Shown here: piece after piece, positions 44,477 through 58,709 of the stretch
Layout: every line of letters starts with the position of its first letter
How positions within the stretch are numbered: position 1 is the stretch's first letter
Assembly (NCBI GenBank): GCA_964394145.1
Contig: CAYMVL010000043.1
Coordinates: 53,285 to 117,284 of the forward strand
Reading direction: 5' to 3'
From: an uncultured Dehalococcoidales bacterium
Lineage (GTDB): Bacteria; Chloroflexota; Dehalococcoidia; GIF9; AB-539-J10
DNA length: 64,000 nucleotides
The notes under the pieces: generated by a model
What the model saw: the letters and a program-made list of their open reading frames with translations, nothing else
What the model was told of the DNA's origin: nothing
Database searches by the model: none
Translations under genes and position numbers: made by a program

Positions 44477-44593
44477 CTATCATATAACTGTGAATATAGT
44501 AGCACAAGTGCAGCGGGCTTTTCAGTCTGCCAAACGAGGAAGCGCAATATCGTCCTGCTATATTAGAAGGTCGCTTGGTATTGCGATTAGAAT

Positions 44594-46861
44594 TCAGCTC
44601 ACTAGCCCTTCAAGCAGCATTACGGCCGCTTTCTTGTCAAGGGGCTGGTTGTTGTTGCCGCACTTCGGCGATTGTATGCAAGACGGGCAACCATCCTTAC
44701 AGGAACACCCCTTAATTAAATTCAGAGTAGCTTGCCAGAGCTGTTCTACTATCTCAAATCCTTTCTCAGCAATGCCGATGCCCCCGGGATACGCATCGTA
44801 GATGAAGATTTGCGCTTTGCCTGTGTCGGGGTGAAAAGGCATGGAAACGCCGCCTATATCGTTCCGATCGCACAGAGCAAACAGTGGGAGTATGCCAATG
44901 GCGGCATGCTCACAGGCGTGCAGGCCACCGTGAAAATCAAGCCCAACATCAGTGATCTTATCGATTGCCTTCTGTGGTAAATCAAACCATAATGACTTGG
45001 TGAGGAAGCTCTGAGGTGGCAAGTCAAGTGTTTCCTCTCCAATAAGCTCCTCAGTGAACTGTCTCTTCTTTTTGAAGCCTACGATTCTAGTAGTAACAGC
45101 GACATCTCCAAAATAGACTCTAGCGCTGCGGCATTCCTTTTCCTTGACCGTCTTTAGCACCCGGATGTCGGTGAGTTCCTTCGTTTGAGTATAGTAATCA
45201 ACATATGCTTGTCTGGCTAAAGCAGTATGCCTGACCAGGTCGAGCTCCATTATAATGTAGGACTCGCCCTGATGCAGATAGATAGCACCAGGGTGTATTT
45301 GAAAGAAGGCAACGCTAGCTTCCACGGTCTCCACAAGACAGCCATGGGAATCAATAATGGCATACTGTCCCGATGTCGCCCTTATATTTACTTCCTGAGC
45401 GGGATAGATAGAGGTGGGAGAAGGATACCATCTCTCACCGCGCTTCCTTATCTTGCCTTCTTGTTCCAAGTCGGCTAGCGTAACATCAAAAGTGTCCCCA
45501 AAGATTTGTTTGCCTTTCTCACTTAACGGCTGCTCCCAGGCAGCACAAAGAAGATGCGGCTTTAAGATATGGGGGTTATCTGGATTAATCAAGGCGTTAT
45601 CGAAGTTTTTACCGAAGAAGAAATCAGGATGATGCATTAAATATTGGTCAAGCGGGTTGTCCTGAGCTATAAGGAAACTCAAAGAACTATGGCTGCTTCG
45701 CCCGCTGCGGCCTGCTTGCTGCCAGGCGCTGGCAATACTTCCTGGATATCCAGTAAGCACCGTTGCCTCCAAATCGCCAATGTCTATTCCCAGTTCTAGA
45801 GCTGTTGTTGCCACAAGGCCTACTAGATGGCCTTGCAAGAATTGGTGCTCAATTCGGCGTCTCTCCTCAGGAATATAGCCTGCACGATAAGGACTGATAA
45901 GTTGTGCCAGTGAGGCAGATAACCGCGATTGGGTGTAGATATAAATAAGCTCAGTCAATTTACGGGTGCGGGCAAAGACGAGGCTACGGATATTTTTTTG
46001 AATAAGCTCAGCAAGAAGGAAAGCAGCTTCGCTATTAGCACTGCGCCGACTGCTTTTAGCTTCGTCGAGGAGCGGTGGGTTCCAGAAGGAAAAGTATTTT
46101 TCACCATGTGGTGAACCATCTTTGATAATTGCGTCAAAGGGTAAACCAGTCAGATTTTCGGCATGCTCTTTGGGATTAGCAATGGTCGCCGAACAACAAA
46201 TAAACTGGGGATTGGAACCGTAGTGAGCACAAATCCGTCTCAACCTCCGCAGAACATTAGCTACGTGAGAGCCAAAAACACCCCGATAAACATGAGCCTC
46301 ATCAATAACCACGTACTTCAAGTGCTGAAGTAACTTGGACCACGATTCATGGTTGGGCAAAATGCCCAGATGGAGCATATCGGGATTGGTGAGTACTATT
46401 CTGGCTTGTCTCTTTATGGCAGTCCTTTGACTCTGCGGCGTATCACCATCAAAAATAGCGATTGCTTTTTCAGAAAGTAGTCCGGGCAAGGCAAGTTGTC
46501 TCAGGCTGCGAAATTGATCCTGGGCCAAAGCTTTAGTGGGGAAAAGATAGAGAGCGGAGTTACTATTATCAATCAACATTGCCTCAAGCGTGGCTATTTG
46601 ATAGCACAATGTCTTGCCGCTTGCACTCGGAGTAGCGACTATTACATTCTTCCCTGCGGAGATAGCGTTTAGCGCCTCTGCTTGATGACTGTAGAGGCGT
46701 GACATGCCTAGAGATTCAAGCCGTGCTTTCAAGGCAGGTTTGAGGGGCTTGTCTAGTTCATCGAAAGTGGGACCTTGAGAGTGGATAAGTTCAATATGGA
46801 TAATCTGCTGTTCGTATGTAGGCAAGTTGATAAGATGATGAAGAAAAACAGCAGCGTCCAT
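44594..46861 (-). CDS. DEAH-box helicase with DUF1998 (MrfA/YprA/Hrq1-like)
   Basis: ASGKT, PTKALAQDQ, DEAH, LELGIDIG, QAGRSGR, C-terminal CSCKDGCPSC. Confidence 0.92.
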   Translation of the reverse strand: MDAAVFLHHLINLPTYEQQIIHIELIHSQGPTFDELDKPLKPALKARLESLGMSRLYSHQAEALNAISAGKNVIVATPSASGKTLCYQIATLEAMLIDNSNSALYLFPTKALAQDQFRSLRQLALPGLLSEKAIAIFDGDTPQSQRTAIKRQARIVLTNPDMLHLGILPNHESWSKLLQHLKYVVIDEAHVYRGVFGSHVANVLRRLRRICAHYGSNPQFICCSATIANPKEHAENLTGLPFDAIIKDGSPHGEKYFSFWNPPLLDEAKSSRRSANSEAAFLLAELIQKNIRSLVFARTRKLTELIYIYTQSRLSASLAQLISPYRAGYIPEERRRIEHQFLQGHLVGLVATTALELGIDIGDLEATVLTGYPGSIASAWQQAGRSGRSSHSSLSFLIAQDNPLDQYLMHHPDFFFGKNFDNALINPDNPHILKPHLLCAAWEQPLSEKGKQIFGDTFDVTLADLEQEGKIRKRGERWYPSPTSIYPAQEVNIRATSGQYAIIDSHGCLVETVEASVAFFQIHPGAIYLHQGESYIIMELDLVRHTALARQAYVDYYTQTKELTDIRVLKTVKEKECRSARVYFGDVAVTTRIVGFKKKRQFTEELIGEETLDLPPQSFLTKSLWFDLPQKAIDKITDVGLDFHGGLHACEHAAIGILPLFALCDRNDIGGVSMPFHPDTGKAQIFIYDAYPGGIGIAEKGFEIVEQLWQATLNLIKGCSCKDGCPSCIQSPKCGNNNQPLDKKAAVMLLEGLVS

Positions 46862-46868
46862 TTATCAT

Positions 46869-47162
46869 TTAAGGAAAGGAAAAGACTTCTACTTCCGAGC
46901 GCAATAACTCTAGGTCGGGATAATTCTGAGTGACGAACTTTATTACGTTGGATAGAATCTCGTCAGCATGCCTTCTACTATTGCTAACACAGACTATGCC
47001 TAAAGTGGCTAATTGCCATGAACCTTGACTGTCAACTTCGGCCACAGATACGTTATAATTGTTCTGGAGCCGCGCAACAACGGATCTGATTACTTGCCGC
47101 TTGCCTTTAAGGGAGTGGTTCTCAGGAAGGCGAAACTCAATTTGGCATACCCCGATTGTCAT
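46869..47162 (-). CDS. DUF503 (YlxP-like) protein
   Basis: HSLKGKR, NVSVAEV. Confidence 0.9.
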   Translation of the reverse strand: MTIGVCQIEFRLPENHSLKGKRQVIRSVVARLQNNYNVSVAEVDSQGSWQLATLGIVCVSNSRRHADEILSNVIKFVTQNYPDLELLRSEVEVFSFP

Positions 47163-47450
47163 CCTTTAATACTCAGTAAGTCTATACATGGGGAGACATG
47201 CCAGTCAAGCTTGTGTAATCCTTTATGTGGTTGGTGACACGTTCTCCTTCCTTGCTCCCTAGCACTCCTGGTTATGCGTTACCTGTGCTCTCATGCATGA
47301 CGCAGCATAATCACTAGTCCATCCTGGTACCATCGGAGATGTTCCTCTCTTAACCCGGCTACGGCGTTAAGTGCCTCCGCCTAATAGGGTTCAATCTTTA
47401 TGAGGAAGCCAGTTCAGACACAAAGAGGAGGCAAGATGGGTTGCAAAGCG

Positions 47451-48422
47451 CTACAGTATGCCCGCGTACTTGAGACCGACAGCAATCAGAAGCTGAACTA
47501 TCGCTATAGGGGCAAGCCATTTAAGACACATAGTCACCATCTGCTCAATCTTGAGCCTGGCGAATAGCGCTTTAATACAAGCCAGAATAAAGACGATGAT
47601 TAACGTTTTGATAATAAAGGCAATGAATCCTACGATCGAGGCGGGGATACCTGACAGGTGCACGCCAGGGATATCGAAGCCGGCAAGAAACAGTGCTGAT
47701 ATCAAAGCTGCCCCCGCCACCATTTCTATGCTTACCATCAGCCTCATCAGAGCTAATCTTCCACCGGAATACTCTACCAGAGGACCGGCGACAATCTCCT
47801 GCTCCGCGGTAGGGATATCGAATGGAATGCGCTCCAGTTTACCTACAAGCGAAACAATAGCTACGATGAAAGACAGTGGCAGCCAGAGGATGAACCAAAC
47901 ATGGTTCAGCTGGTAGCTCACAATATCCGATAGGCTCCAGATGCCGGTTACTAAAGCAGGGGAAAGTATAGCCAGGAAGAACGGTACTTCATAGCCGAAA
48001 AGCTGGGTCAGCACTCTAAACCCACCCACAGCGCCAAAAGGATTTGTGGAGTGCCATCCAGCCAAGAACAGGAACAAAGCGGGCAAGGTCAAAAGGTAGG
48101 CTACCACAATTATGTCTCCTGTAAAGGGATAGACTGACTGGGCAGACCAGATGGGGATATAAATGAAGCCGGTTACCACTGCGGCAATGCCAAAGATAGG
48201 CACAGCTGTAAACATCTTCTTATCTGCCAATCCAGGGACCAATGACTCCTTCGACAAAAGTTTGAAAAAGTCAGCCCAGGGTTGGTAAAGGGGAGGGCCA
48301 ACTCTACTCTGCAGGCGAGCCACCACCTTCCTGTCTATGAACTCACAGAACAGGCTATAAAAAAACAGGAATAGGAATCCCGGAAAAACTATCAAATTAG
48401 CAATGGCAATGCCGACGCTCAT
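47451..48422 (-). CDS. Complex I subunit H-like membrane subunit
   Basis: RKVVARLQSRVGP, ADFFKLLSKE, ERIPFD...AEQE..GPLVEYSG. Confidence 0.92.
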   Translation of the reverse strand: MSVGIAIANLIVFPGFLFLFFYSLFCEFIDRKVVARLQSRVGPPLYQPWADFFKLLSKESLVPGLADKKMFTAVPIFGIAAVVTGFIYIPIWSAQSVYPFTGDIIVVAYLLTLPALFLFLAGWHSTNPFGAVGGFRVLTQLFGYEVPFFLAILSPALVTGIWSLSDIVSYQLNHVWFILWLPLSFIVAIVSLVGKLERIPFDIPTAEQEIVAGPLVEYSGGRLALMRLMVSIEMVAGAALISALFLAGFDIPGVHLSGIPASIVGFIAFIIKTLIIVFILACIKALFARLKIEQMVTMCLKWLAPIAIVQLLIAVGLKYAGIL

Positions 48423-48568
48423 CTTCTTAACTCCTTAGTGGCTGAAGGCCATGCATACCCCTTCAAATCTTCTCCACCTGTCCATGACGTCGTTTCCGCA
48501 TCAGAGACTTGGGAAACTTCCTTCGTAGTCCATTCCCTGGGTTTCAAGCAAAGCTTAAATCTATCCAT
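48419..48568 (-). CDS. 49-aa ORF inside the membrane-complex operon
   Basis: Fills the NuoI-NuoH gap; its stop overlaps the NuoH ATG; MDRFKLCLKPREW...SWTGGEDLKG. Confidence 0.4.
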   Translation of the reverse strand: MDRFKLCLKPREWTTKEVSQVSDAETTSWTGGEDLKGYAWPSATKELRR

Positions 48569-48577
48569 ATCAGCATC

Positions 48578-48967
48578 CTAACGAACTGGCTGAGCCAGTT
48601 TATCAGGGCCATATACTGCCTGATCTTTATCCATAATTGAAATCATAGCCTCATGGGTCATATGAATTGCATCTCTGGGGCAATACTCTTCGCAGAGAGC
48701 ACAGAAACAACACTTGCCCAGGTGTATCTGAGGATACAGCTTGTCCACTATCTTCCCCTTTTTCTCTTCTTCACCAACCTTCACAAGCTCAATAGCCTTG
48801 TTGGGGCAAACCAGAGAACATACCGGGCAACCTGTGCATTTTTCCAGATCTAAGAAGTGCCTCCCTCTGTAGCCCTCCACCGGGGGTAGAGCCTGGTACG
48901 GGAATTGCAGAGTCATCGGTTTCTTGAATAGATTTTTCAACAGCGCAGCAGGTCTAAATATGCTCAT
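48578..48967 (-). CDS. NuoI-like 2x[4Fe-4S] subunit
   Basis: CTGCPVCSLVCP and CCFCALCEEYCP. Confidence 0.92.
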   Translation of the reverse strand: MSIFRPAALLKNLFKKPMTLQFPYQALPPVEGYRGRHFLDLEKCTGCPVCSLVCPNKAIELVKVGEEEKKGKIVDKLYPQIHLGKCCFCALCEEYCPRDAIHMTHEAMISIMDKDQAVYGPDKLAQPVR

Positions 48968-48973
48968 TTCGGC

Positions 48974-50116
48974 TCACCTATCCATATCGGCAGGGCAGGG
49001 GTCCAGGCTCCAGTATATAGCCGGGATATCCGCTATAGATACCCCCTTGGCCAGGAAGGGAAATGCGGTTAAAGTGTGCGAGAAACTAGGCCCCCTGACT
49101 TTTACTCTATAGGGTCTCTCGCTTCCATCGCTCACCATATGGAAACATAGTTCTCCTCTAGCTGCCTCACAGCAGAAATAGGCTTCTCCCTTCGGGATTT
49201 TCTTGGTAATTCCCCACTTGACCTTGAAATCCCCGTCAGGCATCTTATCAACGAGCTGCCTCACCATAGAAATGCTTTCCAGTATTTCTCCTCTCCTGCA
49301 CAAAGACCGGGCGTAGGCATCTGCTTTGTCATCAGATATAACCTTAAAATCTATATGGCCGTACGCATCATAAGGCTCATCTTTTCTCACATCGGTCGCT
49401 ATGCCGGAGGCTCTCAGGTTAGGCCCTGTGATTCCCAGAGCCACCGCATCCTCAGCATTCAGAGTACCTACACCTTTCATCCTCATGGTAAACGTTGTAT
49501 TGTAAAAGACCAGGTTATCATAAAGCTTCATTTGATTCTCCAGATAATCAAGCACCTTGAGAATTTCTTGCCCCATCTCTGGAGTAATGTCTCTTCTGAC
49601 GCCTCCAGGCATGAAATGGCAGGGATATATCCTGCCCCCTGTAATGATTTCATTCAGGCGTATAATCTTCTCCCTATCTCCCCAGGCGATTCTGGTCCCG
49701 CTATCAAGGCCCAGTACCATTGAAAGCACCCCGATCCAGGTTATATGAGACAAAAGTCTGCCCAGCTCTGCCATGATAGTCCTGATGAACTTGCCCCTTG
49801 CAGGAGCCTCAATACCTGCGGCTTTTTCCACCACATTCACATATCCCATCTCATTAGAAAAAGGGTCAAGAATGCATATCCGGTCGGTAAGCATAGTGTT
49901 CTGGGCATGGTTTCTATACTCCATAAGGCGTTCAAAGCCTCTGTGGAGATAACCAGGATGTGGAGTCAGCTCGACTACCTGCTCACCAATACATTTAACC
50001 GCGGCGAAAAAATGTCCTGACGCCGGATGTTGCGGACCGAAGGGGATGGTTGTGAAGCTCAGCTCCGTTTCCTCTAACTCATCCTTCTTGGCCAAAATAT
50101 CCCTTGTCGTCTCCAT
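48974..50116 (-). CDS. NuoD/MbsL-like large subunit lacking a full NiFe ligand set
   Basis: FGPQHP, GYLHRG, RICILD, EAARGE, C-terminal DPCPADMDR; ATG 50116 preferred over 50188. Confidence 0.9.
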   Translation of the reverse strand: METTRDILAKKDELEETELSFTTIPFGPQHPASGHFFAAVKCIGEQVVELTPHPGYLHRGFERLMEYRNHAQNTMLTDRICILDPFSNEMGYVNVVEKAAGIEAPARGKFIRTIMAELGRLLSHITWIGVLSMVLGLDSGTRIAWGDREKIIRLNEIITGGRIYPCHFMPGGVRRDITPEMGQEILKVLDYLENQMKLYDNLVFYNTTFTMRMKGVGTLNAEDAVALGITGPNLRASGIATDVRKDEPYDAYGHIDFKVISDDKADAYARSLCRRGEILESISMVRQLVDKMPDGDFKVKWGITKKIPKGEAYFCCEAARGELCFHMVSDGSERPYRVKVRGPSFSHTLTAFPFLAKGVSIADIPAIYWSLDPCPADMDR

Positions 50117-50573
50117 AGTATTCCCTTTTGACATACTCTCGAATATCGAAATCCTTCCTGAACGGCGGCAGTTCTTCCCAGTCCTCAAGGAATAGTTCGC
50201 TGAGATCCGGGTTCCCCTCGAAGTTTATACCGAATAGTTCGTGCCCTTCCCTTTCATGTATTTGAGCACCTATCCACAGGTCAACAACTGATTTTATTGA
50301 AGGAGACCCCCTGGGTATCCTCGTCTTCACGATCACCCGTATCTTCTTGCTATGTGACCAGAGATGATAGACCAGCTCGAACTCCCCTTCATCAAGATAA
50401 TCAACGCAGGTGACGTCAGAACAGTGGTCAAAACCCATATCTTTAAGCTGCGATAAAATCTGGTAGCATTTTTCTCTTTTTACACCAAGCCATAATATCT
50501 TATCTTCACAAGACGAAGACAGAATCGCATCTTTGAATTTAGACTCGATGCTGGAGATGATTTCATTAACCAT
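50079..50573 (-). CDS. NuoC-like subunit
   Basis: VTCVDY, ERE..ELFGINFEGNP, PPFRKD. Confidence 0.92.
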   Translation of the reverse strand: MVNEIISSIESKFKDAILSSSCEDKILWLGVKREKCYQILSQLKDMGFDHCSDVTCVDYLDEGEFELVYHLWSHSKKIRVIVKTRIPRGSPSIKSVVDLWIGAQIHEREGHELFGINFEGNPDLSELFLEDWEELPPFRKDFDIREYVKREYYGDDKGYFGQEG

Positions 50574-50574
50574 G

Positions 50575-51024
50575 TTAATGACCTTTAAATCCGCCCTTTA
50601 TAGCCTGCATAGCCATCACTATTCCATGACCTATGTTCTCCGGCTTAGGAGGGCAACCAAGAATCCACATATCTACAGGGATATAATTGTCTATTCGCTT
50701 TACCGTGGAATAAGAGTCCCAATACATTCCTCCTGTCATAGGACAGCTTCCCAGAGCCAGAACATACCGAGGCGAAGCCATCTGGTCATAGATCATCTTT
50801 ATACGTTTAAGTCCCTTTTTAGTTACATATCCTGACACAATGAGCACGTCCGCCTGCCTCGGATTTGACACGGCTAATATCCCGAACCTCTCCATGTCAT
50901 AGCCAGACCCCACCCACGGAAGCAACTCCATGAATCCACAGGCTGTGAAGTAATTTATTGCCCATAATGAATAGGTACGTGCTTCATCCCTGGATTTTAT
51001 AACTCGCGGCGTCAATTTCTTCAT
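50575..51024 (-). CDS. NuoB/MbsJ-like small subunit with 3 Cys ligands
   Basis: TACGFME, YDMERFG, PRQAD, GSC..GG, GCPP. Confidence 0.92.
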   Translation of the reverse strand: MKKLTPRVIKSRDEARTYSLWAINYFTACGFMELLPWVGSGYDMERFGILAVSNPRQADVLIVSGYVTKKGLKRIKMIYDQMASPRYVLALGSCPMTGGMYWDSYSTVKRIDNYIPVDMWILGCPPKPENIGHGIVMAMQAIKGGFKGH

Positions 51025-51037
51025 ATCGTGTACACCT

Positions 51038-51358
51038 TCAATCAGACAACAGGACTACCACCGCTACTAAGGCGATGAGCAAATAGACAATGCCTATCAA
51101 GGCAATGTTGCCACCGGGTACAGTGGCAATTACCAGGGCTGCTACATGCAGGACAGTAAAGAAAAAGGCAAAATGGAACAGATGGTACGCGTGCTGTACT
51201 TTCCTGCCAGGAATATCCTCACCACAAGCATAGGTACTGAGCTTTGCCTTGTCCAGGCTTGGCTTCGGACTCAAAGCTATGCTTACTCTATATATCAGAT
51301 ACCCGACAAGCAGGAATATCAAGAACGCGATTGGTGGATAAAGAAGGACCTGTCCCAT
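51038..51358 (-). CDS. NuoA-like subunit
   Basis: Three TM segments, K.STYACGE loop. Confidence 0.85.
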   Translation of the reverse strand: MGQVLLYPPIAFLIFLLVGYLIYRVSIALSPKPSLDKAKLSTYACGEDIPGRKVQHAYHLFHFAFFFTVLHVAALVIATVPGGNIALIGIVYLLIALVAVVVLLSD

Positions 51359-52831
51359 TTAAGCTCCTCCCATACTGGCCATCATAAAGCTTACCACAGG
51401 CTCAACTACTTTCAAACCCAGCTCAGGATAGACTCCAAGCGCAACTGTGAGTACTACCAATATGACGATGGGTACAGCTATAGCCGCCGGAATTCCTTTA
51501 GCCTGCCTGGCTTTCTCAGAGATATCGCGTGAGAAAATGATTTTATTTATAGCAGGCAGGTAATAACATAAGGAAATCAGGCTATTCACTATCAGCAGAA
51601 CTGTCGCTACGATACCCCAGCCACCAGCATCAATGCCTGCTTTGCCGATGAAGAACTTGCTGACAAAGCCATTCAGCGGGGGCACACCTGCTAAGGCAAA
51701 TCCAAAAAAGGCAAAGGCAACACCGATTAGGGGCAGTTTCCGCCCTATTCCCCTCATTTCTTCCATGTCGCGTGTGCCAATAGAATACAAAATGGCTCCA
51801 GCACACAGAAAGGCTCCGCCCTTCATTACAGCATGGTTAAGTATGTGGAAGAACCCGCCCCGGAGTCCAAAGTCACCGGCGGTAGAAAGATACGCAAATG
51901 CTACACCTATTCCTAACAGGATATACCCCATTTGTGCAATACTGGAATAAGCCAGCATCCTTTTCAGGTCTCGCTGCACCATGGCGATGAAATTCCCCAC
52001 GAACATACTGACAATGCCAAATATGATCAGCACAACTCCAGAGTTGACCCCTGGTATTACCGCCAAGACTTTAATCATAATAATAAGTCCGGCTTCAATG
52101 ATTACCCCCGACAACATAGCGCTTATTCCACTGGGAGCAGCGCTGTGTGCGTCAGGGAGCCATGTATGGAGAGGCACTATGGCTGCTTTTACTCCGAAGC
52201 CGATAATAATGAGCCCGACGGCAGCAATTGCTTTCAGTGAATCCATGTTGGTAGTGAGTTTGGCCAGGATAGCCAGGTCCAGACTGCCCGTATACATAAA
52301 TATTAGGGAGATTCCCAGAAGCGCTATGAGGGAACCAAAGACGCTCATAATGATGTACTTCATTGCTGCTTCTATTGGCTCCCATTTCTCTTTCTCAAAA
52401 GCAACCAGAACATACGAGGGTATAGCCATGACTTCGAAGAAGACAAATAGGTTAAATAGGTCTCCGGCGAAACCAATTCCTACGATTCCAGCGATCATGA
52501 TCAGGAGGAGGCCGTAATATTTACCCAGGCCGTCATACTTCTCCATGGAGCTTACAGAAAATATTGACACCAGAGCACCCAGCCCCACAGCTACGAGGCC
52601 CAGGAATATGGCTAACCCATTAGCCTGCAGGTAAGTGTGAGCACCTCCGATAGACCAGGTTACTAGTTCACTTCCAGGATAAAGCGTGGATATCTGGACG
52701 CCAGAGGCGATGAGAAAGGCAAGCGAAACGAAGCCGGTATACTTAGGTTTGTGCAGCAAACGAGCACAAAGATAGCTTACCAGAGCTCCTACAAAGAGGG
52801 TGACGATAGGAAGCAGAAGCGATATGGTCAT
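51359..52831 (-). CDS. MrpD/NuoM-N-like antiporter subunit
   Basis: DLFNLFVFFE, EAAMKY, PLHTWLPDAH, DLKRMLAYSS, NHAVMK. Confidence 0.92.
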   Translation of the reverse strand: MTISLLLPIVTLFVGALVSYLCARLLHKPKYTGFVSLAFLIASGVQISTLYPGSELVTWSIGGAHTYLQANGLAIFLGLVAVGLGALVSIFSVSSMEKYDGLGKYYGLLLIMIAGIVGIGFAGDLFNLFVFFEVMAIPSYVLVAFEKEKWEPIEAAMKYIIMSVFGSLIALLGISLIFMYTGSLDLAILAKLTTNMDSLKAIAAVGLIIIGFGVKAAIVPLHTWLPDAHSAAPSGISAMLSGVIIEAGLIIMIKVLAVIPGVNSGVVLIIFGIVSMFVGNFIAMVQRDLKRMLAYSSIAQMGYILLGIGVAFAYLSTAGDFGLRGGFFHILNHAVMKGGAFLCAGAILYSIGTRDMEEMRGIGRKLPLIGVAFAFFGFALAGVPPLNGFVSKFFIGKAGIDAGGWGIVATVLLIVNSLISLCYYLPAINKIIFSRDISEKARQAKGIPAAIAVPIVILVVLTVALGVYPELGLKVVEPVVSFMMASMGGA

Positions 52832-52880
52832 AATTCCTTCACCCCGCTCAGCATTTCAATCCACTTAGAACTTCGTCTCC

Positions 52881-54656
52881 TCATATTCCCCAGACAAACA
52901 ACAGTATCAAGAATACGATCGCACCTATAACTATGCCTGCGTTGTTGTAATTCAAATCCCCTGTCTGCACTCTCCTGAACCTCTGCCAGAAAGCGAAAAG
53001 GCCCTTGACTATTACAGTGTTGTAGAAAATATCGAACCAGTAAGCTCTGATCAGAGGCAAGGTAGCGCGAGACGGTTCCCTAAAAGCGTTGATGACACTT
53101 GCTCTCCATTTTACAGTAAGTACGGCTATGATAATGGCTGCTACGATAGTAACCGCGATAATCGGACTGGTGAATGAATGATGCATAAGGTCTGCAAGAG
53201 AAATGTGCCCCACCGGATACTGCGACAGCGATGCCACCATGCCGGAGGTATAAGGTGAGATAAAAACCCAGAAAATGATAGAGCCTGCAGCCAGTACTAC
53301 CAGAGGCGCTGTCATTACACGTGGTGCTTCGCGAACCACCGTCTTGGTCCTGCTTTCACCCTGGAATGTAAGCCAGTACATACGCCAGGAGTACGCGGCA
53401 GTGAAGAACGCGGCTATAATGAGAAGGACAAGAGGTCCATAAACACCGTTTTCAAGCATATTTGCCATAATCATATCTTTGGAGAAAAAACCGGTCCAGA
53501 TCGGGATTCCCACCAATGCCAGGAGACCGAAAATAGAGGCAACATGGGTAACAGGCATACTCTTCTTCAGTCCTCCCAGTTCTCGCATATCTTTGGTTCC
53601 TGCCATGTGAATAATGGCGCCAGCGCAAAGGAAGAGGAGAGCTTTAAATATCCCGTGGGACACAAGGTGGAACTGGCTAGCAAGGACCGCCCCTCCCCCA
53701 ATAGCTGCCATCATATAGCCTAATTGACTTATGGTGGAATATGCCAGCACCCGCTTAATGTCCCATTGTGTCAAAGCTATGGTAGCTGCTAAAAATGCGG
53801 TTATAGCGCCAATCCAGACTATCGCAGTAGTCCAATTAGCAACCCCCACAAAGATCGGGTAACTACGGGCAAGCAGGTATATCCCGGCGTTGACCAGACA
53901 AGCAGCATGAATTAAGGAAGTGATTGTTGTGGGAGCTACCATGGCATCTGGTAGCCAGACATGCAGAGGAAACTGGGCCGACTTCCCAACGGCTCCCGCA
54001 ATGAACCCAGCCCCGGCCAGGCCAAGGAGAAGAGGAGAAATGCCAGCCGCGGCGTTTATTATTTCAAAGACATTGAGACTCCCTGTAGCATACCAGAGGA
54101 TCAGTATCCCGGCCAGAAATCCCACATCCCCTATCCGCGTTACAATGAATGCCTTGGTTCCCGCCGGTATTGGCTCGGCATCATGGTAGTAATAAGCAAT
54201 CAAGGCATAGGAGCAGAATCCGATAACCTCCCAGAAGATATACATGACCAGCAGGTTGCTGGTCAGAGCCAGGCCGATCATGCCCCCGATGAAGAGCAAG
54301 GTTTGCCAGTAATAGCGTGATAGGGAATATTGAGGTTCAGCATGCTCCATGTAGCGCAGAGAATACAGCAAAGCCAGAGCTCCAATGGAGCCTGCAACTA
54401 CGGCAACAAAGACGCTGAAGGAATCAAGGCAAACGCCGACGCTTATGTTCACCCCCGGTATCCAGAGAAACTCCTCAACGCTGCCCTCTGCAATACGGGG
54501 TATTAGCGACAGTGTCAAACCAGCGCTTATGAATCCCAGCGTAATGGCATACGCATTTCTTGCTTTGGAGCTTATTCTCTCAACCAGATAGCAAAACGGC
54601 CCACCGATTATAGGTATCAGCACGGCTAATATAGCTATTAAAGCACCAGTCTGCAT
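52881..54656 (-). CDS. NuoL/MrpA-like antiporter subunit
   Basis: FWE, RIGD.G, KSAQFPLHVWLPDAM..PT, IKRVLAYST.SQLG, HGIFKALLFL. Confidence 0.93.
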   Translation of the reverse strand: MQTGALIAILAVLIPIIGGPFCYLVERISSKARNAYAITLGFISAGLTLSLIPRIAEGSVEEFLWIPGVNISVGVCLDSFSVFVAVVAGSIGALALLYSLRYMEHAEPQYSLSRYYWQTLLFIGGMIGLALTSNLLVMYIFWEVIGFCSYALIAYYYHDAEPIPAGTKAFIVTRIGDVGFLAGILILWYATGSLNVFEIINAAAGISPLLLGLAGAGFIAGAVGKSAQFPLHVWLPDAMVAPTTITSLIHAACLVNAGIYLLARSYPIFVGVANWTTAIVWIGAITAFLAATIALTQWDIKRVLAYSTISQLGYMMAAIGGGAVLASQFHLVSHGIFKALLFLCAGAIIHMAGTKDMRELGGLKKSMPVTHVASIFGLLALVGIPIWTGFFSKDMIMANMLENGVYGPLVLLIIAAFFTAAYSWRMYWLTFQGESRTKTVVREAPRVMTAPLVVLAAGSIIFWVFISPYTSGMVASLSQYPVGHISLADLMHHSFTSPIIAVTIVAAIIIAVLTVKWRASVINAFREPSRATLPLIRAYWFDIFYNTVIVKGLFAFWQRFRRVQTGDLNYNNAGIVIGAIVFLILLFVWGI

Positions 54657-54658
54657 AT

Positions 54659-54964
54659 TTACCCTCGAAGCCTCCTGAGGTCCTTGATATCAAGACTCCC
54701 GGTATGCTTATGGGCCACAACTATGAGAGACATGGCAACAGCTGCGGTAATTGCTTCAATTAGAATGATGGTTATCACGATAGCCTGTGCAATTTGTTCA
54801 TTCCCCTGAAAAAAACCTGCCAGAATGAAGGCCAGAGTCACTGCTTTTGCAATAACTTCGATACCAATGAGTAACTGAACGGTATTTCTCTTTGCTAGAA
54901 GACAGTAAATCCCAATCCCAATAAGCAATATAATGGCCACCATATAAAGCTGCCACAAGCTCAT
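54659..54964 (-). CDS. NuoK/MrpC-like subunit
   Basis: GIYCLL..RN...LIGIE, EA, DLRRLRG. Confidence 0.9.
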   Translation of the reverse strand: MSLWQLYMVAIILLIGIGIYCLLAKRNTVQLLIGIEVIAKAVTLAFILAGFFQGNEQIAQAIVITIILIEAITAAVAMSLIVVAHKHTGSLDIKDLRRLRG

Positions 54965-55188
54965 CGCTGTCCCCTTTCTTTGACTAAGGTCAATATGCTG
55001 AAGGTGCCTGCTAGAATGATTAGTAGTTGTAGGAATACGTCTAGTGAACGGAAGCCCCAGAGTGCCTCGCTAAGAGACTTAGCCGCGGTAACGCTTACGG
55101 AAGGTTCCGGGAGAGGAACCAATAATAAAACGGCAAAAACGACGAAGACCACCGTTGCTATTATCCCTATTACGTGTCTTGTCTCCAT
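54961..55188 (-). CDS. Small membrane subunit (NuoJ C-half/MrpB N-like)
   Basis: Two TM segments, LWGFRSLDVFLQ. Confidence 0.75.
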   Translation of the reverse strand: METRHVIGIIATVVFVVFAVLLLVPLPEPSVSVTAAKSLSEALWGFRSLDVFLQLLIILAGTFSILTLVKERGQR

Positions 55189-55189
55189 G

Positions 55190-55429
55190 TTATCTTCTTC
55201 TCGTCAAGCTGATGACCGAGACAAACAAAGCTGTAATTAATCCGGCGCAAACAGAGAGTTCGAATACTCCAGCATAGGCGGAATTCAACTCGAAGAACAT
55301 TATGGAGATTATTACGCTTAGGATTGCCAGTGAAATAGCTGCATAGAGTATGTCCTTTAGCCGGACGGCCACGATAGCACAGGCAACAGCGGCAACAACT
55401 AAGATAACACTAACAGCATTAATGGGCAC
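55190..55429 (-). CDS. Small membrane subunit (DUF4040/NuoJ N-half-like)
   Basis: Three TM segments, A.YAGVFELSVCAGLIT. Confidence 0.8.
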   Translation of the reverse strand: MPINAVSVILVVAAVACAIVAVRLKDILYAAISLAILSVIISIMFFELNSAYAGVFELSVCAGLITALFVSVISLTRRR

Positions 55430-55994
55430 TGCTTTTGCCTCTCAATATGTCTTTAGGAGCGCAACGCCTGCTGATGGGTCGATAAGACAACTTTCCCCAA
55501 ATTGGTGGAGACACCCGTGGCATTTCTATCACTCTCGTTATGAGCAATGCAAGCGTTTCTGGAAAGGTTACCATACCAGACTGATTTTAGTCAATACTAA
55601 GATTTCAAGCATAAAATCTAACCGGGGTGAGGACGCTCAAATCAGGATAGGTTCTAATCGAGCCTGTCTTGAGGAAAATATCTCAGTCTGAACCCGGCCT
55701 AACTCAAGGGCCAAATAGGAGCAAGATTGGAAAAGCTGTACCCCGTTTATTAGGCAAAGACGAAGACCCTGCAGCCCGACCCTTACGAAGAGACAGCACC
55801 TCACATGGCCAGAAATTATATGATTCAACAATCCCCCGTTGGGTCAGGTACTTAGAGTCGAAAGGCCGTCTATGATCGGCTGCATGTCTTCAGCATGAAC
55901 GGGTTGTGTCAATTTCCAGGCCAATCTTGTAATCAAACAGACGCATTCTTGACACCAATACTGTTCTGGTCAGATAATATAATTGGTCTTAGTT

Positions 55995-56066
55995 GCGGGT
56001 GTAACTCAGCGGTAGAGTGCTTGCTTCCCAAGTAAGACGTCGTGGGTTCGAATCCCATCACCCGCT
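55995..56066 (+). tRNA. tRNA-Gly(CCC)
   Basis: GCGGGTG/CACCCGC acceptor stem, TTCCCAA anticodon loop, GGTTCGAATCC; CCA not encoded. Confidence 0.96.
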
Positions 56067-56106
56067 TTGTTGACGCTCCATATTCATCAAAGTATAATTT
56101 GAAAAG

Positions 56107-56382
56107 ATGCGGATAAAGCTAAGTAGCAGCCAGTTGGACGGGTTGTCGCATCAGCTCCCTTTCGAGGTGGTGTTGAAGGAGCCGAGAGATGTTAGAGGCT
56201 TCTTAGAAATTTTGGGGCATAATATGCCCTGGGATGGAATGGGGCTCAATAAGTTTGGCGATCCCCTCAGGAAGCCAAACAGGGTAGCTTTCTCGGTTGA
56301 AGCGATTGACGGTGGATTCATTTGCGATGTTCATCCTGCGTTTGCTTGCTATATCTCCAATATTTTGACAACGGAAAAGTGA
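56107..56382 (+). CDS. Hypothetical protein between the tRNAs
   Basis: 91-aa ORF after TATAAT; no recognisable motif. Confidence 0.4.
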   Translation: MRIKLSSSQLDGLSHQLPFEVVLKEPRDVRGFLEILGHNMPWDGMGLNKFGDPLRKPNRVAFSVEAIDGGFICDVHPAFACYISNILTTEK

Positions 56383-56437
56383 AATCCGCATTGCCAAGTT
56401 ATTCACTCCAATTTATGAGGCTGTCTTACGAAATCAT

Positions 56438-56510
56438 GGGCCGTTAGCTCAGTTGGCAGAGCACCTGACTTTTAATCAGGGTGTCCAGGGTTCGAGTCCC
56501 TGACGGCCTA
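56438..56510 (+). tRNA. tRNA-Lys(TTT)
   Basis: GGGCCGT/ACGGCCT acceptor stem, CCTGA-CTTTTAA-TCAGG anticodon arm, GGTTCGAGTCC. Confidence 0.96.
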
Positions 56511-56674
56511 CAAAACCCCGATTTCAAAGCTAATTTCGCCCTAAATCTCAAAAAATCCCCTCGGAAACCGGCTCCTTTGAGCACCTGATTTGTTAATAAG
56601 AGGGCTCGATTCCCGGGGAATTCGTATTTCGGATAGGGTGAAATTGGCGCGACATTAGCACCCAACTTCTGGCT

Positions 56675-57077
56675 CTGGTCAACCAGTCTCTGCTAGAAGC
56701 AGTAAGCACCAAGAGGCCGGAGAAAGGGCTGGTGCACCACTCAGACCGCGGCAGTCAGTACTGCAGTTATGAATATCAGTGGCTGTTAAGGCAGTTTGGA
56801 CTGGATGTATCAATGAGCGGAAGCGGTAACTGCTTTGATAATGCGCCGATGGAGAGCTTCTGGGGAATTATCAAGCAGGAACTGATTAATCATCGGAATT
56901 ATCGTACCAGGAGGGAAGCAATTGAAGATATTACGGAATATATTGAGATATTTTACAACCGGCAGCGGCGGCATGCTAAACCGGGACTGTTAACACCTGC
57001 AGCCTGTGCAGGCAAATGCTATGCCGGCCTGGTAGCAGAATAAAAGGTTCCGCGTCCATTACTGATATCCGACCCCA
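56675..57077 (+). mobile_element. IS3-family remnant (OrfB C-terminus plus right end)
   Basis: HHSDRGSQY, SMS..GNCFDNAPMESF, YIEIFYNRQRRH; putative terminal IR ending in CA at 57077; no N-terminus. Confidence 0.85.
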
Positions 57078-57081
57078 CTAT

Positions 57082-57112
57082 AAAAAGAAACGGCGCCACA
57101 AATGGCACCGCT
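57082..57112 (-). terminator. Intrinsic terminator downstream of the tRNA-fMet site
   Basis: Minus strand GCGGTGCCA-TTTG-TGGCGCCGT followed by TTCTTTTT. Confidence 0.6.
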
Positions 57113-57162
57113 GACATTGCCTGTCATGTTAGGTTCAATTACATCTGGGTTAGCTTCAAGAT

Positions 57163-57207
57163 TGGTAGCGGGGGTTGGATTTGAACCAACGACCTCCGGG
57201 TTATGAG
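57163..57207 (-). repeat. att site: 3' half of tRNA-fMet(CAT)
   Basis: Minus strand CTCATAACCCGGAGGTCGTTGGTTCAAATCCAACCCCCGCTACCA; tRNA similarity stops exactly at the anticodon loop. Confidence 0.9.
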
Positions 57208-57619
57208 TTGAACGCATGTGCTGATTTGGGATGGCTTCACGTTTGCTATGGTACATATGTTCTATTGCTGAAATGATGTGGCGAACGTGGGGTGATGGGG
57301 CGTGATAGGTGGGCGCGCTGAGTCTATTAGCAGATTATTAGCAAAATGTTTGCAAAATGCCGGGCAGATGTAGAAGGCAAAAATGGAATCGGGCTATGCG
57401 ACTAGTGCATTTGTTAGCCTTCACAGCTTCGCATGGAGAACCGGAGTATACGCCTGGGTCTGAGGCTCTGGGCACTAGGGGTCAAGGCCGCAGTGGAGAC
57501 AGGAGAAGAAACTCGTATTGCAAGTCTCGTTTTGCGCAGTGTGGTAGCACTGGTTTGGAGTATAGCTGTATGGTGGGTCAAGTGTGAACGTGATTAGCTT
57601 GTTGGGTAAATGGTCGGGG

Positions 57620-57647
57620 TTGACATAGGGTGTTTGTATAGTATAAT
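57620..57647 (+). promoter_or_regulatory. Consensus sigma70 promoter of the TA operon
   Basis: TTGACA-N16-TATAAT. Confidence 0.7.
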
Positions 57648-57773
57648 GATGTTGGATAATAAGGAATACCAAATAAATTATATGAGCTTAGGAGTTGTTC
57701 CTATGGACTCAGCATCAAAAGGAAGAGCGGCCTGAAAGGGACGCCGAGACCGCATTTTTGTTTCAGGAGGTGG

Positions 57774-58301
57774 ATGATGGCGACATCTGAAATTGCCTTC
57801 GAATTCAATGAAACTAAAGCGATCGAAACTATACTCTACCTCGCCAATAGAATGTCACGCTCTGATAAATACAACATTTGTAAGATGCTTTATCTCGCAG
57901 ATAAGATCTCCCTTGAGAAATATGGGAGATTCATATTCGGAGAATCCTACTGGGCCATGAAGGAAGGGGCGACACCGTCTAAATCCTATGATCTTCTAAA
58001 AGAAATTGCACGAGAATGTTCTGAAGAACTCAGATTAGAAGGCAATGCTGTTATCCCACTGCGTGATGCCAACTTGGATTATCTAAGTGAATCAGATATT
58101 GAATGTTTAGACCACACAATCAGCATATATGATAGGAACCCTAAAAAAATGCGTCTTGATAGCCATGACGGTGCGTGGGAAAAAGCGTGGCACAATAGAG
58201 GCGAAAAGGGAAGTGCTGATATTTCAGTCAGAAGCATTGCCAGAACACTCGCTGATTCTGAGGACTTGATAGACTATCTAACAAATCGTAATGTTGAATA
58301 A
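57774..58301 (+). CDS. Panacea (DUF4065/SocA) antitoxin
   Basis: F...KAIETILYL, KMLYLAD..SL..YGR.I.GE.Y.AM..G..PS, LSESD, SHD.AW; start may be 57777. Confidence 0.85.
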   Translation: MMATSEIAFEFNETKAIETILYLANRMSRSDKYNICKMLYLADKISLEKYGRFIFGESYWAMKEGATPSKSYDLLKEIARECSEELRLEGNAVIPLRDANLDYLSESDIECLDHTISIYDRNPKKMRLDSHDGAWEKAWHNRGEKGSADISVRSIARTLADSEDLIDYLTNRNVE

Positions 58302-58306
58302 CCTTC

Positions 58307-58672
58307 ATGATTGCCCTATGGCATATCTATCGTGTGAAGAAGTGTCGGTACACAACCCCTCCCAAAGACAAGTATGTTATTATCGTCTGTTTGAACCCTA
58401 ATCCATATGGCTTTCTGGTCAATTCAAGAATAGCTCCCTTTGTCCAAAAAAAACCTGATTTGCTATCTAGCCAGGTTTCTATAACTGCTGATAGATACGG
58501 CTTCTTAAAGCATGATTCGTATATAAACTGTGGTCAGCTGTTTTCGTTCAAGGGCAGTGAATTACATGGTGTTCAAGACGTTCAAAACAATACGAGAAAG
58601 CAAATAGAGAGGGTTGTAGCTAATTCTAAGTTAATCGAGCCTATTTACAAGAGGCTCATATGTGGCAAATGA
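58307..58672 (+). CDS. Putative toxin partner, PemK/MazF-like fold suspected
   Basis: 5 nt after the Panacea gene; PPKDKYVIIV, FLVNS, FLKHDSYINC. Confidence 0.55.
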   Translation: MIALWHIYRVKKCRYTTPPKDKYVIIVCLNPNPYGFLVNSRIAPFVQKKPDLLSSQVSITADRYGFLKHDSYINCGQLFSFKGSELHGVQDVQNNTRKQIERVVANSKLIEPIYKRLICGK

Positions 58673-58709
58673 GTTTAATTATTGGCTATTATAGAGTTTG
58701 CCAGTTTCT

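Follow-up and report, generated by a model that had tools for sequence, protein, structure and literature searches.

Gene content of the operon

The stretch of DNA analysed here, called the window below, comprises 64,000 nucleotides of contig CAYMVL010000043.1 (forward-strand positions 53,285 to 117,284; assembly GCA_964394145.1) from an uncultured Dehalococcoidales bacterium, and it carries an operon of eleven contiguous open reading frames (ORFs) on the minus strand, at window positions 47451-55429. As a whole, the operon joins a catalytic core that resembles, by its best PDB matches and by phylogeny, the membrane-bound sulfane reductase (MBS, or MBX) of Pyrococcus furiosus to a membrane arm whose nearest relatives, outside its own operon type, sit in NiFe-hydrogenase operons. 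The order of transcription is J1-J2-K-L-M-A-B-C-D-I-H. All eleven reading frames are intact and the gaps or overlaps between ORFs are at most 49 nt, except for 155 nt between I and H (48423-48577), the sole long intergenic stretch of the operon, inside which nothing was recognised. A scan of positions 47000-56200 gave 13 promoter-like sites vs. 12.9 expected, and 6 terminator-like sites vs. 7.9 expected.

Genes were assigned with Pfam and NCBIfam profiles on the ORFs of window positions 43550-61292 (bracketed values are E-values unless given in bits). Four consecutive genes encode the peripheral subunits. B (50575-51024) is a NuoB-like small subunit of 149 amino acids (aa), with Cys residues C29, C94 and C123 and a score above the NF005012 cut-off, while C (50079-50573, 164 aa) is NuoC/MbsK-like (PF00329, 1.3e-35). 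D (48974-50116), the large subunit of the NuoD family, has 380 aa when read from the ATG at 50116; upstream of this ATG the frame stays open as far as a TTG at 50188, and the database copy of the protein is also 380 aa long. Finally, I (48578-48967, 129 aa) is a NuoI/MbsN-like protein with two complete CxxCxxCxxxCP motifs for two [4Fe-4S] clusters (TIGR01971, 1.4e-29, under the cut-off, and Fer4 families).

As for the membrane subunits, H (47451-48422, 323 aa) is a NuoH/MbhM-like anchor (PF00146, 2.8e-76), and A (51038-51358, 106 aa) is NuoA-like, with three helices and a YACGED loop (PF00507, 4.7e-4, under the cut-off). Two antiporter-like subunits are present: L (52881-54656, 591 aa), of the NuoL type (TIGR01974, 443 bits vs. 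a cut-off of 407.5), and M (51359-52831, 490 aa), which is MbhH/MrpD-like (PF00361, Proton_antipo_M, 2.1e-68). K (54659-54964, 101 aa) is NuoK/MbhG/MrpC-like (PF00420, 6.2e-19) and, by our own assignment of its transmembrane (TM) helices, appears to carry one Glu in each of two of them. The two remaining genes correspond to the halves of a NuoJ-like protein, J1 (55190-55429, 79 aa) being the N-terminal, MbhD-like half (PF13244 MbhD, 3.6e-5, and PF00499, 2.9e-6, both under the curated cut-offs) and J2 (54961-55188, 75 aa) the C-terminal, MbhE-like half, which matches no Pfam family. J1 is 49% identical to residues 3-74 of the unsplit 160-aa J of a NiFe-hydrogenase operon (locus L104), and J2 aligns with residues 94-155 of the same protein (E 2.6e-7); in a Desulfobacteraceae metagenome-assembled genome (MAG; locus L009), separate J1 and J2 genes show 65% and 50% identity to those of the window. 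Because both halves match one 160-aa protein and L009 is split likewise, J1/J2 is a real split gene and not a frameshift.

A first-pass annotation, made from the sequence alone, had listed two antiporter subunits, split NuoJ-like genes and a NuoA, all of which were found again by the profiles, the split J being backed by L104 and L009. The same annotation had seen no NuoEFG and no maturation protease, and no NuoE/F/G-like or HycI-like gene was indeed detected among the ORFs of positions 43550-61292. Likewise, Pfam gave no member of the MNHE, MrpF, MnhG or MnhB families among the ORFs of the operon.

Catalytic subunits and their phylogeny

The three Cys of B, located in YFTACGFMELL, GSCPMTGG and GCPPKPE, are the only ones among its 149 residues. 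Its best PDB match is MbsJ, the small subunit of MBS (6u8y_J, 2.8e-42), followed by NdhK (5.9e-37). C29, C94 and C123 align to the MbsJ ligands C28, C93 and C123, with a Phe at the position of MbsJ C25. TACGFME lies on TGCGGIE of MbsJ and reads ACG where NdhK has ACC, so that B possesses neither the tandem CC nor a CxxC. In MbsJ, C28, C93 and C123 are described as the proximal cluster ligands, C25 being present but too distant to bind, and the free iron of this three-Cys cluster has been proposed to bind and cleave polysulfide by a mechanism that requires neither protons nor amino-acid side chains (PMC7684303). At the level of sequence, the proximal cluster of B would thus be held by three Cys only, as in MBS, in line with the three ligands that the first-pass annotation had read from ACGFME.

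The pattern at the equivalents of MbsJ C25, C28, C93 and C123 was analysed in the best 80 of 591 confirmed related stretches, sorted by identity to the window D. In the close tier (at least 59% identity, seven loci), six have F-C-C-C and one is truncated. Among the 19 loci at 45-50%, 12 have F-C-C-C, while seven are fused forms whose pattern was not resolved. The 54 loci at 38-44% mostly have C-C-C-C (39), followed by G-C-C-C (seven) and F-C-C-C (three, all of which fall in the mid-tier clade of the tree described below), the other five being cut by the ORF calls or absent. B is also the best-conserved subunit, with 75-81% identity in the close clade, and its three Cys, together with both cluster motifs of I, are conserved across phyla.

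Concerning D, the motifs in question are TDRICILDPF, inside the protein, and SLDPCPADMDR, at its C-terminal end. The best PDB match is MbsL (6u8y_L, 5.4e-83, 282 bits), in a single full-length stretch, followed by Nqo4 (5.7e-73, 249 bits), in two stretches, and MbhL (8.5e-49). In the 6u8y alignment, RICILD lies on RICVPE of MbsL and DPCPADMDR on DNCPPDIDR, and the first Cys of each NiFe CxxC pair (MbsL C85 and C385) is kept, which gives the pattern C-D-C-D; RICILD and DPCPAD in place of the CxxC pairs, as reported by the first-pass annotation, are therefore present and fall on the MbsL Cys. The position of the quinone-binding Tyr (Nqo4 Tyr87) is Ile in D and Tyr in all but four of the NuoD-type rows. 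The hydrogenase C-terminal extension is missing, the protein stopping at DMDR.

When the NiFe-Cys columns were compared in 271 sequences, 74 had C-D-C-D, 40 C-E-C-D and 46 C-C-C-C, most of the others being NuoD-type sequences with D-x-V/I-E/D, nearly always with the Tyr. Two representatives scoring above the FpoD cut-off keep both Cys along with the Tyr, while the D proteins of L009 and of L008, a locus on a 3.8-kb contig of a Dehalococcoidales MAG, have Asp at the first Cys position. The large-subunit Cys pair is thus neither specific to MBS nor conserved; vestigial Cys in mbx, mbx-like and Fpo proteins had already been pointed out by Degli Esposti 2015 (PMC4758237). Of the Cys signature that the first-pass annotation had taken as the mark of MBS, the three-Cys small subunit stands and the large-subunit pair does not.

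The phylogeny of the large subunit was built from the best 120 of 6368 matches with E <= 1e-20, the best 150 of 9878 50%-cluster representatives with E <= 1e-3 and the second paralogue of the genome. A FastTree of 179 rows, all with 300 or more aligned residues, and a quick IQ-TREE were calculated, as well as a careful IQ-TREE of 94 rows and 360 columns under LG+C20+F+G4 PMSF. P. furiosus MbsL, MbhL, EchE, HycE and named FpoD/NuoD sequences were not included, and the clades were anchored by PDB and NCBIfam scores, Cys patterns and operon content. Locus L018 enters with its hydrogenase paralogue, and the Hadarchaeota MBS-like D is absent from the tree.

The three trees agree. In the careful IQ-TREE, D belongs to a close clade of 12 rows (support 100/99). 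Together with the mid-tier clade and a clade of fused, roughly 660-aa proteins, the close clade makes up a larger clade of 26 rows (99/96). This 26-row clade is sister to an MBS-type clade of 15 rows, both making up a group of 41 rows (100/98), apart from the NuoD-type rows (98/85), the FpoD rows (100/100) and the four-Cys hydrogenases (100/99). The 15-row clade is considered of the MBS type because two of its members score 347 and 362 bits against 6u8y_L vs. 249 and 237 bits against Nqo4, its small subunits carry the MbsJ-like CTGCG motif, and its Thermobrachium celere locus has the exact mbs order MrpE-MrpF-MrpG-MbhD-MnhB-K-H-H'-M-J-K-L-N. An approximately unbiased (AU) test rejected the grouping of the 26-row clade with NuoD and FpoD (delta lnL 89.5, p 0.0009), the test being formally weakened by the naming of its groups after the first tree had been seen. 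The grouping with NuoD/FpoD that the first-pass annotation had named as adverse to its reading was accordingly not seen.

The best PDB matches and the tree support an MBS-like catalytic core made of D and B. Because the large-subunit Cys are common to FpoD and partly lost in L009 and L008, and because the MBS mechanism does without side chains, it is the three-Cys small subunit that is the constant and, as judged from the motifs, diagnostic feature of the 26-row clade.

This clade has members in Bathyarchaeia, Asgard archaea, Thermoplasmata, Chloroflexota and other groups. Its fused members (proteins P0071-P0107; loci L024, L028, L030, L032, L034, L044 and L064) are about 600-680 aa long, mostly about 660, and join Fer4 to NuoB and NuoD domains; a NuoC gene is all that accompanies them. 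They come from Bathyarchaeota/Hecatellales, Anaerolineae, Heimdall-/Promethearchaeota and Thermoplasmata MAGs; no membrane gene was seen beside them within the available flanks, and a pattern search for their domain order and cluster motifs gave nothing clear. As for the MBS type, operons with a NuoI of 600-900 aa (L047, L048, L053-L055, L060, L061, L065, L071 and others) have been seen in Gammaproteobacteria that oxidise sulfur and in their relatives (Thiodiazotropha, Sedimenticola, Thiohalocapsa, Parasulfuritortus), and Gly replaces the first small-subunit Cys in the Bacteroidales/Chlorobiota members.

Membrane arm and genomic context

The two antiporter-like subunits have different affinities. 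L is closest in the PDB to NdhF (2.7e-86) and Nqo12 (2.9e-84), then to MbhH (2.1e-50) and MbsH (5.4e-39), whereas M is closest to MbhH (6cfw_H, 1.2e-77), then to MbsH (4.5e-55). An AF2 model of L (32-row alignment, pLDDT 86.6) places helices at residues 538-560 and 568-589 after TM15, which suggests a lateral helix of about 23-27 residues followed by one anchor helix, far shorter than that of NuoL and, in our reading, long enough to clamp one neighbouring subunit. The top Foldseek matches of the model are all NuoL/NdhF/ND5, MrpA appearing at rank 24. H matches MbhM (1.3e-34), NdhA/Nqo8 (about 1e-33) and MbsM (2.6e-31), and A gives only weak matches to Nqo7/ND3/NdhC (E 0.06-0.6). Both antiporter-like subunits, K and H keep the charged residues that we take to be conserved in NuoL, NuoK and NuoH; in the antiporter-like subunits, this includes intact TM5 Glu, TM7 Lys and TM12 Lys motifs, again as we presume them from NuoL.

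Among the best 80 of the 591 loci, the same eleven genes in the same order were found only in L009, with 50-79% identity. L008 shows B-C-D-I-H, and these two are the only other loci of the window operon type. Other loci of the close clade, from Eubacteriales, Aminicenantes, Bathyarchaeia and Hadarchaeota MAGs, have B-C-D-I alone. In the Eubacteriales/Aminicenantes genomes, the best match to the window H (52%) lies in a separate operon, L-L-M-J-K-A-B-C-D-H-I (loci L104 and L105), of which D is a true NiFe large subunit (RICGICSHSH, DPCICCAER and an extension) and B has CNAC. The membrane subunits of the window are closer to these hydrogenase operons than to the MBS-type and mid-tier loci: 47-48% (ORF calls; 52% by search) vs. 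26-36% for H, 48-52% vs. 28-39% for J1 and 40-43% vs. 21-34% for K, while A shows 48-49% identity with its counterparts in L104/L105 and 52% with the one in L009. B shows a clear reverse preference (36-39% to L104/L105 vs. 45-58% to the MBS-type and mid-tier loci) and D a smaller one (37% vs. 40-50%), the ranges overlapping for C (29-36% vs. 36-53%) and I (32-39% vs. 33-47%). In a careful tree of 21 H proteins, which had no complex I outgroup, the H of the window, L008 and L009 group together (95/91) and join the H of the NiFe-hydrogenase operons at 100/100, apart from the MBS-type and mid-tier H.

Since the nearest relatives of the membrane subunits outside the operon type sit in true NiFe-hydrogenase operons, the operon is, within the set examined, chimeric: an MBS-like B-C-D-I cassette stands on a membrane arm nearest to those of NiFe hydrogenases. 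The more complex-I-like membrane arm that the first-pass annotation had described holds for L, which is NuoL-like, but not for M, closest to MbhH, nor for H, which groups with hydrogenase H. The case provides a concrete example of exchange between hydrogenase-type and MBS-type peripheral arms and bears on the evolutionary assembly of complex I.

Two further arrangements were observed. The genomes of L104 (G302:C3) and L105 (G303:C114) mirror that of the window, their MBS-like B-C-D-I cassette being found by itself on a different contig. The mid-tier locus of an uncultured archaeon (L012:3769-11438) encodes MrpE-F-G, MbhD, MbhE, MnhB, K, H, an unassigned ORF, M and B-C-D-I, with C-E-C-D in D and a single-Cys loop in B, so that an active site like that of MBS is combined with the architecture of the membrane-bound hydrogenase (MBH). 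Membrane arms of at least three kinds thus carry the MBS-like catalytic cassette: MBS-type, MBH-type and the NuoL/MbhH hybrid.

The 45 contigs of the assembly add up to 1.62 Mb (94% completeness, 2.9% contamination). Its Dehalococcoidia origin, as proposed by the first-pass annotation, is supported by the relatives of the EPSP synthase encoded in the window, of which six are named among the best 120 (five 'Dehalococcoidia bacterium', one 'Chloroflexi bacterium', 73-75% identity); the named relatives of L are 'Chloroflexota'. No PF00361 antiporter-like gene and no H, A, J or K homologue was found in the genome beyond those of the operon itself. Profile searches of this 94% complete genome gave no match for UbiA (PF01040; 14 of 14 controls positive) or MqnA (PF02621; four of 14 controls positive), and none for Rnf (four of 14 controls positive) or MrpG (PF03334; seven of 14). 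The reductive dehalogenase profile gave no match either, but was uninformative, its control being silent everywhere. Subphylum II Chloroflexi are described as making no quinones (PMC5736913), and the host genome appears to be quinone-free. Two POR-type genes, ACS, seven molybdopterin enzymes and the alpha and beta subunits of ATP synthase are present. In this genome, in which no Rnf was found, the operon is the only candidate ferredoxin-driven ion pump.

A second PF00346 gene, on contig C25, encodes a true NiFe large subunit with RVCGIC, DPCMAC and the C-terminal extension. It belongs to an orphan module of the group 4 hydrogenase type (L005:1071-11518) composed of a CxxC-bearing B, a NuoC-like protein, D, a ferredoxin and two HycI, and its neighbours are MvhD-MvhG-MvhA, an FlpD/Fer4 protein, a MetV-like protein and HdrA. 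Nowhere in the 94% complete assembly were membrane subunits found for this module. Between its B and D and the corresponding subunits of the L104/L105 hydrogenase operons, identity is 57-70%.

The search for D was extended to a sample of 300 other genomes of the same class, among them the unpublished G244 and eight genomes of the same family. No close relative of D was found in them, the best match having an E-value of 8.9e-80 and the listed identities being 36-42%. Directly upstream of the operon lie an IS3-family transposase fragment of 103 aa (56732-57043, matching only the C-terminal end), a SocA/Panacea-domain protein followed by a 121-aa ORF (57774-58672) and an 860-aa ResIII/BPTD_3080-like restriction-type helicase (58710-61292). 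Because of these genes and of the scatter of close relatives over several phyla, the evidence points to acquisition of the operon by horizontal transfer.

Further away, three of the seven molybdopterin-oxidoreductase genes of the genome lie on the contig of the window, less than 24 kb upstream of it (C43:29490-46956), and positions 13742-15799 of the window encode a 685-aa fusion of mannosyl-3-phosphoglycerate synthase and HAD phosphatase, a compatible-solute gene; such a fusion is reportedly known in Dehalococcoides. The window sequence was found in four DNA runs from aquatic, freshwater and freshwater-sediment metagenomes, which may include its own source, and two salt-marsh runs appear to contain small shares of it.

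Proposed function, alternatives and known systems

From the gene content, motifs, phylogenetic placement, chimeric ancestry and genome context described above, the operon is interpreted as encoding a complex of the non-NiFe MBS/MBX lineage, derived from group 4 hydrogenases, that would sit in the membrane, oxidise ferredoxin, translocate ions and reduce a non-quinone acceptor at an open iron; we estimate the probability of this reading at about one half. By analogy with MBS, MBH, Ech, NDH-1 and Fpo-type enzymes lacking NuoEFG, ferredoxin would be the donor, supplied by the two POR-type enzymes and ACS of the genome. Electrons would enter through the two [4Fe-4S] clusters of I and reach the proximal [4Fe-4S] cluster of B, held by three Cys, whose free iron would be the catalytic site as in Pyrococcus MBS. 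The acceptor would be neither protons nor quinone, the likeliest class being sulfane sulfur or disulfides, e.g. polysulfide or an organic polysulfide; sulfane sulfur is a plausible candidate. By way of the NuoH-like, NuoA-like and J/K subunits, turnover would be linked to a pair of antiporter-like pumps, of which the NuoL-like one would clamp its neighbour by the short lateral helix and the second is MbhH-like, and the ion gradient would feed ATP synthase. Ferredoxin as the donor, catalysis at the open iron, the class of the acceptor, the pumped ion and ion pumping by both antiporter-like subunits are what we infer here. Such a complex would probably set the energy yield of the organism.

Several points weigh against this interpretation. 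D is only sister to the MBS-type clade and lies outside it, and its margin in favour of MbsL over Nqo4 is small (282 vs. 249 bits). It also passes the NuoD model NF004739 (388 bits vs. a cut-off of 360). Besides the Asp of L009 and L008, several close relatives of D have Asn, Ser or Asp at the first Cys, or Val or Gly at the second. The proximal cluster may have a non-Cys fourth ligand. No sulfur-handling gene was seen next to the operon in the window, while in L009 a GltD-like gene directly follows H. Finally, no biochemical evidence for members of the 26-row clade was found in the literature, and no RNA run is among the sequencing runs listed with the window sequence, which is evidence in neither direction.

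The observation made by the first-pass annotation is thus confirmed, while its interpretation, a ferredoxin-driven S-S bond reductase that is neither hydrogenase nor quinone reductase, is partly supported. The exclusion of a hydrogenase is borne out by the loss of two of the four NiFe Cys, of the C-terminal extension and of the CxxC of B, and that of a canonical quinone reductase by the Tyr to Ile change, the missing tandem CC, the AU test and the failure to find UbiA or MqnA.

Of the alternatives, the one that survives best, although unlikely, is that the membrane arm also or mainly serves the NiFe hydrogenase of contig C25, in an H2-evolving or H2-consuming machine to which the MBS-like module would be an alternative or auxiliary. 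The C25 module has no membrane subunits of its own and the genome holds a single H/A/J/K/L/M set; its B and D resemble those of L104/L105, whose H, A and J are, among the loci examined, nearest to those of the window outside the operon type; and in the L104/L105 genomes it is the MBS-like cassette that stands alone. Nevertheless, the operon encodes the full B-C-D-I-H set, and the occurrence of the same eleven genes in L009 argues that this arm and the MBS-like module have evolved together as partners. Moreover, the C25 module has Mvh, Hdr and MetV-like genes around it and may form a soluble enzyme, and a second arm could be missing from an assembly that is 94% complete. We know of no precedent for two peripheral arms docking alternatively on one membrane arm. 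A bolder version, to which we also attach little likelihood, is that a single H/A/J/K/L/M set serves the MBS-like and the C25 hydrogenase B-C-D-I modules interchangeably, and that the 26-row clade is a widespread respiratory family catalysing at an open-iron [4Fe-4S] cluster. If so, one ion pump would switch between the reduction of protons and that of sulfane sulfur or another acceptor, and the mirror arrangement of L104/L105, in two other phyla, would show this same system from its opposite side.

It is quite unlikely that the complex is an 11-subunit-type complex I or Fpo-like enzyme passing ferredoxin electrons to menaquinone, a phenazine-like compound or another lipophilic carrier. Family models do favour it, NF004739, TIGR01974 (NuoL) and NF005012 (NuoB) all being above their cut-offs, and the source names of the relatives of D and L all read 'NADH-quinone oxidoreductase subunit D/L'; the NuoL-like L with its lateral helix, the NuoA-like gene and the retention of the same two Cys in FpoD representatives are also in agreement. 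However, the NF004739 name carries little weight, because a four-Cys hydrogenase also passes this model (P0137, 365 bits), as do MBS-type and Fpo-type proteins, and D scores only 313.8 against the FpoD model NF040602 (cut-off 600). The Ile at the quinone-ligand position, the lack of a tandem CC in B, the rejection of the NuoD+FpoD grouping (p 0.0009) and the failure to find UbiA and MqnA in the genome, with positive controls, all speak against such a carrier. The automatic label 'NADH-quinone oxidoreductase' therefore probably misnames the complex, and 'NADH-quinone oxidoreductase subunit D' annotations in MAGs of anaerobes would conceal functionally different enzymes.

Similarly, there is little chance that the operon encodes a ferredoxin:NAD(P)+ oxidoreductase whose partner would be a GltD/SudA-like flavoprotein from a separate gene, as proposed earlier for Mbx and in keeping with those bacterial mbx-like operons in which NuoI and a GltD-like domain are fused. 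Many bacterial loci of the MBS type have an I protein of about 600 aa, the window I matches the N-terminus of the 611-aa PRK13984 model, and GltD substitution has been described by Degli Esposti 2015 (PMC4758237). The GltD-like gene of L009 (Fer4_20 and Pyr_redox_2; L009:9197-10564) lies right after H, and the window genome has five GltD-like paralogues of 39-46% identity. None of the five, however, lies in or beside the operon, the window I is a plain 129-aa two-cluster protein, polysulfide is the named substrate of P. furiosus Mbx/MBS (PMC7684303) and the conserved three-Cys cluster would be left without a role. On the other flank, the L009 operon is preceded by a class I pyridine nucleotide-disulfide oxidoreductase gene (L009:2-1165). 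Lastly, a redox-dead relic acting only as a cation/proton antiporter, or an operon that is not expressed, is very improbable, since the lost NiFe site and the variable large-subunit Cys of the relatives are outweighed by eleven intact frames, the I cluster motifs and B Cys kept across phyla, the 75-81% identity of B in the close clade and the 50-79% identity of the whole operon in L009.

Taking the MBS-like ferredoxin-oxidising complex as the preferred reading, the operon was compared with known systems. Marreiros 2013 is said to be the original paper on energy-converting hydrogenase-related (Ehr) complexes and may describe related ones; the Ehr concept is cited by Matheus Carnevali 2019 (PMC6349859). 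Ehr and mbx-like complexes share with the operon their relation to hydrogenases, the absence of NiFe ligands, vestigial Cys and antiporter-like subunits. The two papers concerned (PMC4758237, PMC6349859) cover Mrp-containing mbx-like operons with GltD-type subunits, or formate dehydrogenase-linked Ehr, and their available text mentions neither a three-Cys small subunit joined to a NuoL + MbhH + NuoA arm nor Dehalococcoidia. In the full-text literature, Degli Esposti 2015 was the sole relevant paper found on Mbx-like or MBS-like complexes, and no paper joining Mbx with Dehalococcoidia was found. Single-cell papers on Dehalococcoidia/Chloroflexi report an '11-subunit Nuo lacking NuoEFG' (PMC4959651, PMC5736913).

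With 11-subunit complex I, NDH-1 and Fpo, the operon has in common a NuoL-type L with predicted lateral and anchor helices and NuoA/H/J/K-like subunits, and, with Fpo and NDH-1, the absence of NuoEFG. It differs from complex I by two antiporter-like subunits instead of three, the second being MbhH-like, by a short predicted lateral helix, by the lack of the quinone-site Tyr and of the tandem CC, and by a host genome in which no quinone prenyltransferase was found. Compared to Fpo, the methanophenazine-site Tyr is Ile in D, and the FpoD rows form a separate clade.

The likeness to P. furiosus MBH (PDB 6CFW) and to the L104/L105 hydrogenase operons lies in the membrane arm: M has MbhH and H has MbhM as best match, and identity to the L104/L105 counterparts is 40-52% for H, A, J and K. 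In contrast, the window operon lacks two of the four NiFe Cys, the small-subunit CxxC, the C-terminal extension and an operon protease, and its D is only 37% identical to the hydrogenase D. The features of group 4 [NiFe] hydrogenases (four Cys, cleaved extension, CxxC) are absent from the operon and present in the C25 hydrogenase.

Finally, P. furiosus MBS (PDB 6U8Y) is the best PDB match of both D and B and shares with the operon the retained D Cys pair, the putative three-Cys cluster, a NuoI-like two-cluster entry subunit, the absence of NuoEFG and a pair of antiporter-like subunits of which one bears a lateral helix; the large subunits fall in one supergroup (100/98). However, the window D is in a sister clade, and the non-ligand C25 of MbsJ is wholly absent from B, not displaced. 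MBS has thirteen subunits with an Mrp module (MbsA/B/C, corresponding to MrpE/F/G, MbsD and MbsE) that the operon lacks, whereas L022, of the MBS-type clade, has the MNHE, MrpF, MnhG and MnhB families. Loop 1 of the catalytic chamber comes from TM helices 15-16 of MbsH' in MBS, while the window has a separate NuoA-like gene between M and B. The helix-bearing subunit of the window is NuoL-like (5.4e-39 to MbsH vs. 2.9e-84 to Nqo12), the gene order differs, and the host is a Dehalococcoidia bacterium whose DNA was found only in freshwater/aquatic metagenome runs, possibly its own source. Without an Mrp module, and with a NuoA-like gene of its own, the operon does not belong to MBS proper. MBS chemistry, in which S-S bonds are reduced at a three-Cys cluster, has been described for a single hyperthermophilic archaeal enzyme, and the same catalytic signature, with the fourth Cys deleted, occurs here in bacteria and archaea of many phyla.

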